A DNA stretch of 54,845 nt. Source: Nitrospinota bacterium (GTDB taxonomy: Bacteria; UBA8248). The position numbers were made by a program. The stretch is taken from NCBI GenBank assembly GCA_030754595.1, contig JASLZZ010000094.1:1-54845 (forward strand), in the 5' to 3' direction. Positions 1 through 3,000 of this stretch are shown here, piece after piece. Each line of letters starts with the position of its first letter. The first letter of the stretch is position 1.

Positions 1-3000
1 GCCGCGAAGAGGGAGGTGTCCGACGCCCTCCCCGCGAGGATCACCTCCGCCCCCTCGTCGAGCGCTCGGTTGATGGGCTCGTGGCCCATCATCCCGACGA
101 TGTGGGCGCTGCGATCGATGACCTCCTCCGTCAACTCGGGGGCGGGATTGAGGGGCTTGATGCGACCCTCCCGTAGGCGCTGTTTGAGGTAGCCTTTTTC
201 CTGCTCGCTCCGGATGAGGGCCAACCGGAAACGGAGGCCCTCCTCCTGGGCGATCTCGAGGCAGATGTCGCGCATCCAGTTCACCCCGATGTCGCCTCCA
301 CCGGTGCCGCAGGAGCCGACGATGAGCGGGACGCCCAGCCGCCTCCTTCCCAAGAGCATGAGTCGGAGATCCCTTTTGGTGCCTTCGCGGGAGAAGTGTG
401 GGGACCCCGAGCCGAGAAAGGCCGGACCGGAGTCCGTCGAGCCAGCATCGCAGGCGATGACGTGGGGCTTCAGGGAGATACCCCGCTCGAAGGAGGATTC
501 GAGGAAACCGGATCCGATCACTCCGGTGGCCGCCAATACTTGAACTTCGAGCATGGTGACGCTCCTTCAGGCAAAAGATGGTAACTGTGCAGGTACGACG
601 ATTCTTTGGTTTTGAATTGCCGTCTTAAAAAACAATGTCTTTGATTGTGGAATTTTATCATACCCTCCGAAGTCAGGCCTGTGCATGGCGAATTACTAAT
701 CCACCACCAAAGGATCCGAAAACGCGCCAGCGGGGGCGGAGTAGGTCGGTGCGGGTGTGTTGTGCAGAGCCCTATCGACCCCATCAAATTTGGTGTCCAT
801 ATGGGTGTCCATAACCGGTGTGTATCAGTACCAACCGATGTTATTCAGGCTCACCTCGATTTATATACAACTCTTTGAGATTTATAGCTCAGGTTCACTT
901 GATGCCACTCCCTGTCACTCAGTCCAAAAACCCTGGAAATGCCCTCATCATGCAGAAGGCTTACCGGAAGCTGAACGGTAGCTGAGCCCGACCGGCTCCG
1001 GTTGATCGGCCCTGACAGGCGAAATCGCAGGTTGATTCCGTACTATAGTACGGGGTATAGAATTTCTAATCACCTGCGACCACCAGTGTTTTGCGTAAAA
1101 AGGGGAGAGGGACGATGGTGGAAAAAAAAGAGATTCGGCTCGCCGAAATTTTCAAGATGTTGTTGGTGAAAACGGGGGTTAGCCTCTGATGCGCGCCGTC
1201 TCTGGTCCCGGGTCTCGGGGCCGCTATCATCGGCGCGCTGGGTAGCCTGACGGTTTACCGGCCCTATTTCGTTGCATTTGCAATCGTCGCTCTTGTGTGG
1301 ACGTTCTTTCGCCATTACGGGTGGTGTATATCAAGGTCTTGGGGAGAAGGTTTCTCGGCGATTTTCGTTTGCCTCCGTCCCTCGAGCGAACGGGACGCCG
1401 GGCTCTACATCGGTTCGCTCCTCGTCCTTGCTGTGATTATCGCGCCGCCTTGGAGCGTGACCCAGTATTTCAAACCCGCGAACCCTTGCGCGGTATCCTA
1501 TCCTCGGCAGAGGGTCGTCCCTGCTGCGGAATCTCCGCGTCCCATAATTCAACAGATTTCGGAATCCAGTAATCCCTGCGATTCCGGGAATCAGCACTCG
1601 GTCCATTAATCCCTAGGCCAGTTCGTAGCGATACCCTGGCTTTTCCGGTCCGGCTTGACTTCGTATATGGGCATGGAGTGTGGGTTTAAATCCGGAGGAC
1701 GCCCTCCGGCCCGCGCCGCCGAGGTGAATATAATGACGGATACCGAAGCGAAGAAAAGAATTGGTTGGATGGGTTCTATTTTTTCAGGAGCTGCCTCCAC
1801 TGCTTGATGAGTCCCGGCGCTGGCTCCGAGTCTCGGAGCCTCGATTTTTGGCGGCCTTGGCAGCTTAACGGCCTATCGCCCTTACTTCTTGATTTTTGCG
1901 GCCGCTTCGCTGGCGTGGATGTTTTTTCGCCACTTTAAGAACCGCGTCTCCATCGCATGGACACGGGGCGCGGCTGCGGTACTTGCCGAGTTTAAGCCAC
2001 GAAGCGGCACGGACTACCGCCTTTACCTGGGAGCGGCAGCGGTGATCCTCTTGATGGCCTTTCCGCAATGGGGACGGCCTCTTCTTGCGAAGCCTAACAA
2101 CCCCTGCGCGGCGGCGAATCCTTGCGCTACGACAAATCCTTGCGCAGCGGTAAACCCCTGCGCGGCGGCGAATCCCTGCGGTGCCAAGCCCCCAAGCCGA
2201 AAGTAATTTTCTACACCCATCGAATGGTTTCAATTCGGGATGGCTGTTTGGCGCCTTGCGTGAGCGGCTTGACCCCGTACCTAGGTACAGGCTACAGGAT
2301 ACTCCCATCGCGGCGCGGCCGCCTATTGTTTCGCTGAAGACAGGAGAAAGAAATGAACGAAGGCGTAAAAGAAGTCATCGTTTACTCGTCCACGACCTGA
2401 CCCCCATGCAAGGCCGTGAGAGAGTTTCTCTCACATCATGGTATTCCCTTCACGGAAAACCTCGTGGATCAAGATTCCCAGGCGCTCGAAGCGTTTAAAA
2501 AAACCGGCTCGCGCGGCACGCCTACAATTCTCGTCGGGGACGAGATGGTGATCGGTTTTGATCGCGGGCGGCTTGAGCAGCTTTTAGGAATCAAATAACG
2601 GGAGCCCGGAAAATGGCAGCAAAGGAGCGGTGGCTTTTCTGTCCGGTATGAGGCCAGGCGATTCCCGTACCGGCCGGTACATCGTATGACGAATTGTTCG
2701 ATTGTCCCAACTGCGCGGGCATCATGCTTCGCCTCGGCGAAGAGAACGGAGAAGATGTCCTTCGCGCGGCGCAATTGATTTCTTGTCCTGGCTGCGGCGA
2801 GCGATTGCCCATCGATGATGATACGCCGCCGGGGACCCTCATCCGGCATGACGGGGCCGAGTTTGTCCTGACCAAGGAGTTCGGAGCTTTTGCGCTGGAG
2901 AGTTCGTGAAGATCCCGGAGCGATAACGCTACGGGACAGGAGGCCGATCATGGACGCGATGACGATTGGCATACTTGCCCGGAAGGCGGATGTGAACGTC

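Follow-up and report, generated by a model that had tools for sequence, protein, structure and literature searches.

A double zinc-ribbon selenoprotein paired with a seleno-glutaredoxin in Nitrospinota, with a probable role in soft-metal binding

The question raised by this locus is whether an in-frame TGA at 2649-2651 is read as selenocysteine (Sec) or as a stop, and what the small protein that carries it might do. The window is the whole stretch of DNA that was analysed, 54,845 nucleotides (54.8 kb) from the genome of a Nitrospinota bacterium (G000). Translated with table 11, the sole open frame of the region is one of 71 aa from TTG 2694, and gene callers yield forms of 71 aa or shorter (P0005, P0014 and similar). 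With TGA read as Sec, the frame extends to 98 residues with a single internal TGA, at codon 13, and the ATG at 2613 has a GGGAG 10-14 nt upstream. A first-pass annotation had claimed a 98-codon ORF open only under this reading, and translation bears it out, with the motif C-P-V-U-G at codon 13. The protein, here ZnR, carries three knuckles (C10-P-V-U13-G, C31-P-N-C34-A-G and C58-P-G-C61-G-E). It is acidic, nothing in its sequence can be recognised as a DNA-binding surface or motif, and its C-terminus (..EFGAFALESS) is variable among orthologues.

2613..2909, + strand: ZnR, putative double zinc-ribbon selenoprotein gene, 98 aa; ATG 2613, stop TGA 2907-2909
TGA 2649-2651, + strand: predicted Sec codon U13 of ZnR, final residue of knuckle 1 (C-P-V-U); a Sec/Cys alignment column
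2712..2714, + strand: second Sec site of the ZnR family, C34 (end of knuckle 2); TGC here, TGA in 10/30 orthologues

Orthologues of ZnR were found in 30 of 51 Nitrospinota genomes, and a scan of genome contigs returned only seven loci, every one already in this set. Position 13 (site 1) is TGA in 17 orthologues and TGC or TGT in the other 13. TGA occupies both sites in nine orthologues, site 1 alone in eight, site 2 alone in one and neither in 12. The ZnR protein tree requires at least seven changes between Sec and Cys, and one well-supported sister pair differs in state (Sec in G001, Cys in G002). Upstream of U13, C10 is invariant and P11 at least 90% conserved in the orthologue alignment; downstream, C31, position 34 (Cys or Sec), A35, G36, C58 and C61 are invariant, which agrees with the earlier claim that the protein is conserved past the UGA. 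The Sec or Cys state given earlier for each named genome (six UGA, six Cys) was recovered throughout; the orthologue count of 12 genomes was too low, and the switch at site 1 stands but the picture of a single Sec site does not, given the second column.

The source genome carries the means to decode Sec: selA, selB, selD and tRNA-Sec (73.6 bits) all score over their curated cut-offs, and selD itself contains one TGA. The tRNA-Sec gene does not adjoin selA or selB in G000 and is located elsewhere in the genome. Across the phylum, selA is present in 49/51 genomes. ZnR itself and 22/30 of the glutaredoxin genes described below end in an ordinary TGA stop, and we therefore see no reassigned genetic code. 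Because two alignment columns have TGA in some orthologues and a Cys codon in others, with conserved flanks, we read the in-frame TGA as Sec. The claim of a genuine selenoprotein is thus supported by the UGA/Cys columns, the conserved flanks and the full Sec machinery, and we conclude on this comparative evidence that ZnR is a genuine selenoprotein gene, new to the catalogues.

Hairpins after the UGA sites had also been reported, and one is present in the window at the canonical distance.

2667..2680, + strand: candidate SECIS hairpin GUACC-GGCC-GGUAC; 5-bp stem, loop starting 21 nt past the UGA codon

At site 1, however, such hairpins are no rarer in synonymous recodings: the fraction of synonymous shuffles at least as good was 0.71 for the window's hairpin and the mean over the 17 Sec forms was 0.50, and the hairpins of Sec forms were not better than their counterparts in Cys forms. 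The 81 nt after the window's UGA did not fold better than shuffles (z = +1.57), and the minimum free energy of the 45 nt past each site gave no signal against synonymous recodings. Since the register of the local hairpin shifts by one base between genera, RNAalifold missed it in the 17 site 1 Sec forms. Fixed-register pair counts on the hairpins showed no covariation above shuffles. At site 2, each of the ten Sec forms has a hairpin of 8-9 bp whose GGC loop lies 21 nt past the codon, and a mean fraction of 0.08 of synonymous recodings did as well. SECIS support for the UGA of ZnR itself is weak.

To place the protein in a family, we compared it with profiles and solved structures. Reading U as C, Pfam PF21344 (Zn_ribbon_LysW) matches ZnR in two stretches at 33.2 bits against a cut-off of 27; the figures given earlier for NF041070 (2.3e-11) and TIGR02605 (4e-4), both below cut-off, were reproduced, and NF041197 scored 13.1 bits, also below its cut-off. 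An AlphaFold2 model (pLDDT 87.8) found the amino-group carrier LysW (3vpb_E) as its best solved match, with probability 1.00 and an rmsd of 1.2 Å over 46 residues, and further LysW chains (3wwn_B, 3wwl, 5eio_C) matched as well; a profile search against the PDB likewise returned 3vpb_E. The model shows two LysW-like zinc ribbons in tandem. Ribbon 1 has four invariant Cys-type positions, of which 13 and 34 are Sec or Cys by genome. The second half aligns to LysW of S. tokodaii, His ligand included, and its ribbon is one ligand short, with H79-D80 in place of H/C-C. By homology to LysW, ribbon 1 would bind a metal and Sec would serve as one of its ligands.

Searches further afield yielded weak matches to TFIIB-type, FmdB-type and Lar-type ribbons. 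Long proteins matching the ZnR profile were generic multi-ribbon proteins, an integrase and a sirohaem synthase fragment, with no domain-fusion clue, and the natural all-Cys orthologue P0004 retrieved from the ESM Atlas only LysW-like clusters, a few members of which are labelled Methylomirabilota, with no functional lead. No (seleno)protein model of NCBIfam release 20 covers ZnR, nor does any entry in the available part of the table of a 2026 selenoprotein review (PMC13188914), in line with the earlier placement of the family outside known selenoproteins.

The most constant feature of the locus is the neighbour of ZnR. As first noted in the earlier annotation, ZnR follows a Sec-glutaredoxin, and we found a UxxC glutaredoxin directly upstream in 30/30 Nitrospinota loci; in 22/30 the two genes overlap, the Grx TGA stop running into the ZnR start codon. 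The closest family of the glutaredoxin is YruB, at 75.7 bits. YruB was reportedly first cloned from a Clostridium rubredoxin operon, beside a gene resembling thioredoxin reductase (TrxR).

2353..2598, + strand: Sec-glutaredoxin Grx (YruB/NrdH-like); U16 at 2398-2400, motif T-T-U-P-P-C
4539..5558, + strand: thioredoxin-disulfide reductase (trxB), the only one over cut-off in G000

A trxB gene lies no more than 1.5 kb downstream of ZnR in 15/29 other loci. The largest genus (g3; 13 loci, most of the double-Sec forms) has the Grx-ZnR pair with trxB and no mer-like genes within 1.5 kb, and no merO dyad was found at its 13 Grx-ZnR loci. Because of this genus, mercury handling may not be the sole or original role of the family, whose core role may be general redox.

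In the window itself the pair lies among genes and operator-like sequences of mercury-resistance type.

1032..1061, + strand: second promoter-like region; TTGATT, then dyad TCCGTAC-TATA-GTACGGG (1037-1054), upstream of gene 1091-1609
1091..1609, + strand: MerT-like membrane protein; one in-frame TGA, L-U-C where MerT has C-C; weak match, far below cut-off
1655..2206, + strand: MerT/MerC-like membrane protein; two adjacent in-frame TGA (U-U) and a C-terminal tail of five NPCA repeats (2098-2190); weak match, far below cut-off
2269..2298, + strand: promoter-like region before Grx; TTGACC, then dyad CCCGTAC-CTAG-GTACAGG (2273-2290)
2950..3357, + strand: MerR-family regulator with three Hg-ligand cysteines; TIGR02051 128 bits (cut-off 150.85); 4ua1, 5crl
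3456..3626, + strand: short MerT-like ORF, 56 aa, with a C-C pair; below cut-off
3702..4136, + strand: HMA-domain metal-binding protein with a U-x-x-U motif; NF041115 63.5 bits (cut-off 95); start codon uncertain
4150..4407, + strand: MerE-like small membrane protein; Pfam MerE 39.4 bits against 22.8, NCBIfam below cut-off

The best solved relatives of the regulator are the Hg-MerRs 4ua1 and 5crl, with which all three Hg-ligand cysteines align. GTAC-N4-GTAC dyads occur twice in the 54.8 kb, where 0.01 would be expected; each immediately follows a -35-like hexamer and lies upstream of one gene group. The -10 hexamers and the 18-19 bp spacer were read by eye. The merO-type dyad at 2273-2290 lies 64 bp before the Grx ATG. 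Both dyads match the Tn501/Tn21 operator, TCCGTACxxxxGTACGGA, as given in the accessible part of PMC11049809. Across Nitrospinota, 7/30 loci have a dyad 64-95 bp ahead of Grx, and mer-like genes lie within 1.5 kb of the pair in 14/30. The mer-like transport proteins of the window all fall far below curated NCBIfam cut-offs. No MerA over cut-off was found in G000 (96.9% complete), the best TIGR02053 match scoring 355 bits against 454; a MerB family search of G000 gave no match, and as its control matched no genome either, absence is not established. The first-pass annotation had drawn its mercury link from the merR/MerT context only; that context is present, and in the window the link is now firmer through the merO-type operators and the three-Cys MerR. 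Among metatranscriptomes, 5% of the sampled sequence words turned up in two runs from a single study, whose contigs span only 3301-3515 and 5004-5294, outside ZnR.

The family extends beyond Nitrospinota. With a narrower ZnR alignment (A5), all-Cys relatives were found in soil metagenomes. Grx-ZnR pairing recurs in 75/80 soil loci (the other five have <125 bp of upstream sequence), and the Grx motif is U-Q-S/F-C in 62/64 loci with enough flank. Directly upstream of Grx, a MerB-like gene with an in-frame TGA is present in 58/80, and MerR genes and an HMA P-type ATPase lie nearby.

Taken from sequence and context, the most likely role of ZnR is that of a Hg(II)- or soft-metal-binding partner of the seleno-glutaredoxin. 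We think it probable that this new selenoprotein works with Grx, here under a Hg(II)-responsive MerR, and captures Hg(II) or another soft metal at ribbon 1. ZnR would be a cytosolic protein made together with the upstream seleno-glutaredoxin, both transcribed in G000 from the promoter under Hg(II)-MerR control. The Sec-containing MerT/MerC-like importers, the UxxU HMA protein and the MerE-like protein would be co-transcribed, with trxB adjoining. The membrane importers, or the MerB-like lyase in the soil relatives, would deliver the metal to the (Cys/Sec)4 site of ribbon 1, which would capture it and across which Sec positions 13 and 34 would face each other. Grx, recycled by TrxR and NADPH, could then keep the site reduced, or exchange metal or a selenylsulfide with ZnR by what we infer to be direct contact.

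The same neighbours lend themselves to another account, to which we give a minor but real chance, in which ZnR is a pure redox protein, an electron acceptor or relay for a chain from TrxR to the seleno-glutaredoxin, that entered mer operons only at a later stage. Its CxxU/CxxC knuckles would form a selenylsulfide or disulfide, or else hold zinc in a redox-sensitive site or iron in a rubredoxin-like one. The only universal neighbour of ZnR is indeed a thiol/selenol oxidoreductase, nearest to YruB; trxB is close by in about half of the other loci, genus g3 has no mer-like gene, and Sec in CxxU motifs is typical of redox selenoproteins according to the available part of PMC13188914. Against it, the fold is a metal-binding ribbon with four invariant ligand positions, Sec ends both knuckles and lies outside any thioredoxin-fold motif, and MerR, merO, MerB-like and HMA contexts recur in two distant lineages. 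Redox and metal roles of ZnR are compatible with each other. It is improbable that ZnR is instead a small regulatory or nucleic-acid-binding ribbon, a MerR co-regulator or RNA polymerase partner with structural zinc. Many small zinc ribbons are regulators, ZnR lies directly upstream of merR in the window, and it shows the weak TFIIB-, FmdB- and Lar-type matches; but a costly Sec at a structural ligand, switched at least seven times at two positions, would be hard to explain, the acidic protein offers no recognisable DNA-binding surface or motif, and its fixed partner is a redoxin rather than a regulator.

Two further readings fare worse still. Were TGA 2649-2651 a true stop, the 12 codons before it would go untranslated and only the 71-aa ORF from TTG 2694 would be made, or the gene would be decaying, as the short gene-caller forms and the weak site 1 hairpin might suggest. 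We consider this highly improbable: the 17 site 1 TGA forms keep C-P-x in frame before the TGA (C in 17/17, P in 16/17), the start codon lies 5-13 codons before the first Cys and overlaps the Grx stop in most loci, the 71-aa form loses half of the invariant four-ligand site, none of the 18 TGA-bearing genes has any further frame disruption, and G000 decodes Sec. That ZnR is a LysW/ArgW-type amino-group carrier of lysine or arginine biosynthesis has next to no probability. LysW gives the best Pfam, NCBIfam and PDB matches, yet NF041070 reaches 43.6 of the required 75 bits, TIGR01206 gives no match, the ribbon is tandem rather than single, the C-terminus (..FALESS) has no acidic tail ending in Glu, and the neighbours are redox and mer-like rather than of the lysine pathway, at whose genes no search was aimed.

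A bolder reading can also be drawn, which we regard as rather unlikely: a selenium-based mercury defence that dispenses with mercuric reductase, in which MerR induces a set of Sec proteins and ZnR is the cytosolic end point. The set would comprise the MerT/MerC-like importers (UU, UC), the HMA protein (UxxU), Grx (UxxC) and ZnR (CxxU...CxxC/U). Hg(II) would be held between selenolates 13 and 34, or the TrxR/Grx chain would convert it to an inert Hg-Se species. If true, this would be a protein-encoded form of mercury-selenium antagonism.

ZnR adds a selenoprotein family that is overlooked by current catalogues, databases and annotation models. Gene callers shorten the protein at the UGA. Sec seldom occupies ligand positions of a zinc ribbon, and here two such sites switch independently, a natural experiment on why a cell should bear the cost of selenium over sulfur at a metal site. 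The fixed Grx-ZnR pairing leads to a testable hypothesis, a selenolate-based route for mercury-like metals, with supporting context in the MerR/merO control found here, the MerB-like gene beside the pair in soil relatives and the lack of MerA. Its hosts, the Nitrospinota (nitrite oxidisers abundant in the sea) and a lineage from soil, give the family a bearing on mercury-selenium cycling.

Among known systems, the LysW/ArgW carriers share with ZnR the zinc-ribbon fold and the pattern CPxCG ... x17 ... CxxC(A/G)G, and each half of ZnR superposes on them. These carriers bear their substrate on an acidic C-terminal tail ending in Glu, and their genes neighbour those of the lysine/arginine pathway (lysX/Z/Y/J/K). 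ZnR differs in its two tandem ribbons, the lack of a carrier tail, the predicted Sec at ligand positions, and a redox and mercury gene context instead of lysine biosynthesis, its neighbours within 3 kb being Grx, MerR, MerT/E-like proteins, HMA and TrxR.

The FmdB-family zinc-ribbon selenoprotein (TIGR02605), predicted from ocean metagenomes with U/CxxU or UxxU, is the sole catalogued selenoprotein in which Sec replaces a zinc-ribbon knuckle Cys, as far as the available parts of PMC2398784, PMC9312934 and PMC13188914 go. Like ZnR it is a small CxxC...CxxC protein. TIGR02605 scores 20.4 bits on ZnR against a cut-off of 31.3, with no stretch passing; in ZnR, Sec ends each of two knuckles rather than taking both positions of one motif, and the protein joins two LysW-like ribbons in tandem and has Grx as its constant partner. 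NF041197 (OS_HP3 or 'hypothetical protein DW', dual CXXC) is likewise a small selenoprotein with two CxxC motifs. It matches ZnR at 13.1 bits against a cut-off of 40, over residues 56-68 only, and its Sec motif is RxU or GxU in the available part of PMC13188914, differing from that of ZnR.

Closer in context are the heavy-metal families in which Sec takes the place of metal-ligand Cys in mercury-type proteins: NF041115 (UxxU), MerT-type, MerT/CopZ and the MerB-like lyase SaoL (accessible parts of PMC13188914 and bioRxiv 10.1101/2022.07.06.499078). They or their relatives are encoded beside ZnR, here and in soil loci, but differ from it in fold (HMA, membrane helices, MerB fold), and the descriptions of these systems in the accessible parts of the same two sources include no zinc-ribbon component. 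Finally, the window resembles the canonical Tn501/Tn21 mer operon in its three-Cys MerR and in half-sites CCGTAC-N4-GTAC(G/A)G directly after the -35. It departs from that operon in lacking a MerA over cut-off and in its distant Sec-using transporters, and Grx, ZnR and TrxR stand in MerA's place.

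The ZnR gene, which encodes a double zinc-ribbon protein, reads as 98 codons when its single internal TGA (codon 13, 2649-2651; site 1) is taken as a residue. The first-pass annotation had proposed a frame open only with TGA as selenocysteine (Sec, U), and we found the same one; under translation table 11 the sole open frame of the region is a 71-aa ORF from TTG 2694.

2353-2598, + strand: glutaredoxin gene (Grx; PF00462, 54 bits), in-frame TGA in the active site (T-T-U-P-P-C)
2613-2909, + strand: ZnR gene, ATG start, GGGAG 10-14 nt upstream, stop TGA at 2907-2909
2667-2680: candidate site 1 hairpin, GUACC-GGCC-GGUAC

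The product (MAAKERWLFCPVUGQ...DCPNCAG...SCPGCGE...) has three CxxC-type knuckles, the first being C-P-V-U. With U entered as C, ZnR scored 33.2 bits against Pfam PF21344 (Zn_ribbon_LysW), above the cut-off of 27, and fell below the cut-offs of NCBIfam NF041070 (LysW/ArgW; 43.6 bits, cut-off 75), TIGR02605 (FmdB; 20.4 bits, cut-off 31.3) and NF041197 (dual-CXXC small selenoprotein; 13.1 bits, cut-off 40), the same values as reported earlier.

A genome search returned one ZnR match each in 30 of the 51 Nitrospinota species genomes, and all 30 were extracted and translated. Orthologues thus occur across the phylum as the first-pass annotation held, in 30 genomes rather than the 12 it counted; its UGA/Cys switch also stands at site 1 (TGA in 17 of 30, TGC or TGT in 13), while a second switching position, the last Cys of knuckle 2 (C34; site 2), had been overlooked. 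Site 2 is TGA in 10 of the 30 genomes: both sites are TGA in nine, site 1 alone in eight (including the window's own ZnR), site 2 alone in one (G036) and neither in 12, counts that are not independent, as all genomes are mutually related environmental-DNA assemblies. On a maximum-likelihood tree built from all 30 proteins, the four site states must have changed at least seven times; they vary inside genera and between well-supported sisters (U/C in G001 vs C/C in G002). C10, C13/U, C31, C34/U, A35, G36, C58 and C61 are invariant across the alignment, P11 and H79 reach 90% conservation or more, and a start codon lies 5-13 codons ahead of the first Cys in 29 of 30 orthologues, the exception (G047) having ATA where it is expected.

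Sequence conservation flanks each TGA on both sides, the TGA-bearing ZnR genes show no further frame disruption, and a true stop at site 1 is unlikely. A reassigned genetic code was ruled out, since TGA still serves as the ordinary stop of the window's ZnR and of 22 of the 30 upstream Grx genes. The window's genome encodes selB (364 bits), selA (552 bits), a tRNA-Sec (73.6 bits against a gathering score of 47) and selD (345 bits; C16:24543-25505), the last being a selenoprotein form of SelD because it holds one in-frame TGA. Across the phylum, selA exceeded its cut-off in 49 of 51 genomes, the other two being 67% and 79% complete.

Two irregularities were seen among the orthologues. Five loci (L017, L018, L021, L022 and L023) carry a ZnR with a 15-25-residue C-terminal extension and an extra conserved Cys (R/Q-P-x-C), which could be a mobile extra ligand; the G002 protein has the extension without the Cys. 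In L018, an incomplete second ZnR N-terminus (..CPGCGQEIPVPASARPGALIECGN..) lies upstream of the Grx gene and then breaks off; the contig is short and its genome (G011) 67% complete, and the partial copy may stem from faulty assembly or be what is left of a duplicate.

Evidence for a SECIS element in ZnR is mixed. Hairpins do follow the UGA as had been claimed, and are present after both sites; they exceed expectation at site 2 only. There, an 8-9-bp stem (UUCCGCCUG / CGGGCGGAA) is found in 10 of 10 Sec forms, with a GGC loop starting 21 nt past the codon and one G-C to C-G exchange in genus g1; synonymous recodings reached this hairpin in a mean of 8% for the 10 Sec forms vs 39% for the 20 Cys forms, and three Cys forms, near kin of Sec forms, have kept it. 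The site 1 hairpin pairs 5-7 bp around a 4-nt loop that starts at +19/+20, a distance that we take to be canonical, judging by the E. coli fdhF element. In the largest genus it reads CGUCC-CGUG-GGACG, with one pair occurring as a G-C / G-U / A-U series. Site 1 hairpins were no better than synonymous recodings (mean fraction 0.50) or than Cys forms, and whole-segment folding energies and covariation scores did not rise above controls. A SECIS at site 1 is unproven, and the selenoprotein call therefore rests on comparative evidence.

The AlphaFold2 model of ZnR, computed from the 30-sequence alignment with Cys replacing Sec, is confident (mean pLDDT 87.8), all-beta and composed of two similar halves. 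Its best solved match is LysW 3vpb_E (probability 1.00, rmsd 1.2 A over 46 residues, 28% identity), followed by further LysW chains (3wwn_B, 3wwl, 5eio_C). 3vpb_E was also retrieved from PDB sequences by profile, aligned to the second half and including the LysW His ligand. On these matches, ZnR is predicted to consist of two LysW-like zinc ribbons in tandem. All four ligand positions of ribbon 1 (10, 13, 31, 34) are invariant, and each Sec site is the final residue of its knuckle. In ribbon 2, C58, C61 and H79 remain, and the fourth ligand, which distant relatives keep ([H/C]-C-G), is lost.

A UxxC glutaredoxin lies directly upstream of ZnR in 30 of 30 Nitrospinota loci, bearing out the Sec-glutaredoxin neighbour reported earlier. 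In 22 of them the Grx TGA stop overlaps the ZnR start codon (G/ATGA), an arrangement typical of translational coupling. Flanks of most loci span 1.5-2.5 kb; within 1.5 kb of ZnR we found MerR in 8 of 30 loci, MerE-like genes in 10, MerT-like in 5, HMA in 6, Sec-containing MerT/MerC-like genes in 6 and any mer-like gene in 14. In the window, a thioredoxin reductase (TrxR) gene, the sole one above cut-off in the genome, lies 1.6 kb downstream of ZnR, and 15 of the other 29 loci have TrxR within 1.5 kb; no MerA reached its cut-off in the window's genome. Some g3 genomes have a 167-aa ORF between ZnR and trxB (L026:2325-2828); in other g3 genomes trxB comes within ~120 bp of ZnR.

The surroundings of ZnR in the window read as two Hg-MerR-type transcription units, judging by the following features:

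1037-1054: merO-type dyad TCCGTAC-TATA-GTACGGG, directly past TTGATT and ahead of gene 1091-1609
1091-1609: MerT/MerC-like membrane protein, L-U-C
1655-2206: MerT/MerC-like membrane protein, U-U
2273-2290: merO-type dyad CCCGTAC-CTAG-GTACAGG, directly past TTGACC, 64 bp ahead of the Grx ATG
2950-3357: MerR
3702-4136: HMA-domain protein, U-x-x-U metal motif, hydrophobic N-terminus, start codon uncertain

With one U each in Grx and ZnR, seven Sec codons fall within ~3 kb across the two units. MerR is closest to the two solved Hg(II)-MerRs (4ua1, 5crl), with all three Hg-ligand cysteines aligned. GTAC-N4-GTAC occurs twice in the 54.8-kb window vs 0.01 expected, and both dyads (CCGTAC-N4-GTAC[G/A]G; promoter hexamers and spacers read by eye) match the symmetric MerR-binding sequence TCCGTACxxxxGTACGGA described between -35 and -10 of Tn501/Tn21 Pmer (PMC11049809). 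Among Nitrospinota, 7 of 30 loci have a stricter dyad pattern 64-95 bp upstream of Grx, as against 0 of the best 80 soil loci. The two membrane proteins are paralogues (~40% identical) differing in the first-helix Cys pair (L-U-C / U-U); every family score is far below cut-off, and gene 1655-2206 ends in five NPCA repeats (2098-2190). The HMA protein scored 63.5 bits against NF041115, below the cut-off of 95. Metatranscriptome contigs from two runs of one hydrothermal-vent-labelled study match, at 99% or more, 3301-3515 (merR end to merT-like start) and 5004-5294 (inside trxB); none from those runs covers ZnR.

Of 1.84 billion representatives searched by profile, only 95 matched at E <= 0.001, 39 of them at E <= 1e-10. 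About 30 are full-length (84-129 aa) with the architecture of ZnR; many are pieces of 56-80 aa whose start is a contig end or lies past one of the two sites. The few sources naming them say 'hypothetical protein', and the few with a known phylum are labelled Methylomirabilota (Atlas). When metagenome contigs were scanned with the alignment of a subgroup, 466 of the 600 candidate stretches were confirmed; we used the best 80 loci, mostly from soil. Ribbon 1 is CxxC/CxxC in 79 of these 80, the last lying outside the search pattern; in the data examined here, Sec forms are confined to Nitrospinota. A Sec-Grx lies upstream in 75 of the best 80 (the other five have <125 bp of flank), with the motif U-Q-S/F-C in 62 of the 64 having sufficient flank. 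In 58 of the 80, the gene directly upstream of Grx is MerB-like and carries a TGA in frame, at a Cys-rich, conserved position. One such gene (L068:1535-2257; ..DSL-U-TTINFF..) scored 73.7 bits against MerB NF009710 (cut-off 193) and 53.7 against SaoL NF040728 (cut-off 140); these genes are possibly a further Sec-containing MerB-like subfamily. The soil clusters are flanked by MerR genes, and an HMA P-type ATPase comes next in the longest loci. As the pairing holds in both Nitrospinota and soil loci, we conclude that Grx-ZnR is a conserved two-gene module, found among mercury-type genes in two distant lineages.

On the best-supported reading, ZnR would partner the seleno-glutaredoxin and bind soft metals, Hg(II) specifically in the case of this genome. 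Ribbon 1 would supply four thiolate/selenolate ligands. Positions 13 and 34 are equivalent between the knuckles, and Sec can occupy one of them or both, which fits a site where the pair would work together, whether by binding a single metal ion or by forming a selenylsulfide/diselenide; Grx and TrxR could keep the ribbon 1 site reduced or join in exchange. The main rival is a purely redox role; in its favour are the 13 loci of the largest genus, which hold solely Grx-ZnR-(0 or 1 gene)-trxB, and the likeness of the ZnR locus to the TrxR-like / YruB / rubredoxin cluster of Clostridium. Metal-binding and redox readings are not mutually exclusive. It is unlikely that ZnR is a regulator, or a LysW carrier despite its fold; the carrier was rejected on scores below NCBIfam cut-offs, the lack of a conserved acidic C-terminal tail and neighbours other than lysine-synthesis genes.

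The family had been described as uncatalogued, and we did not find it as a selenoprotein in the literature on bacterial, zinc-ribbon, ocean-metagenome (FmdB), Nitrospinota or LysW selenoproteins. Likewise, the accessible portions of the 2026 prokaryotic selenoproteome review (PMC13188914, by term search), BSepDB (PMC13326102, its supplementary family table aside), deep-Sep (PMC12013277), a 2022 review (PMC9312934) and a 2022 preprint on eight selenoprotein families hold no entry for LysW, ribbon, PF21344 or NF041070. Nearest among catalogued families, as far as these sources extend, are NF041197 and the FmdB-family zinc-ribbon selenoprotein, a prediction made on ocean reads (PMC2398784). Because ZnR was not found in that literature and those catalogues and falls under both the FmdB (TIGR02605) and NF041197 cut-offs, we regard it as a new selenoprotein family on sequence grounds. 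Its general kind is known, a functional Cys replaced by Sec with Cys homologues in existence; it is unusual in that Sec occupies ligand positions of a ribbon, that two sites switch, and that a seleno-glutaredoxin is its constant partner in operons of mercury type.
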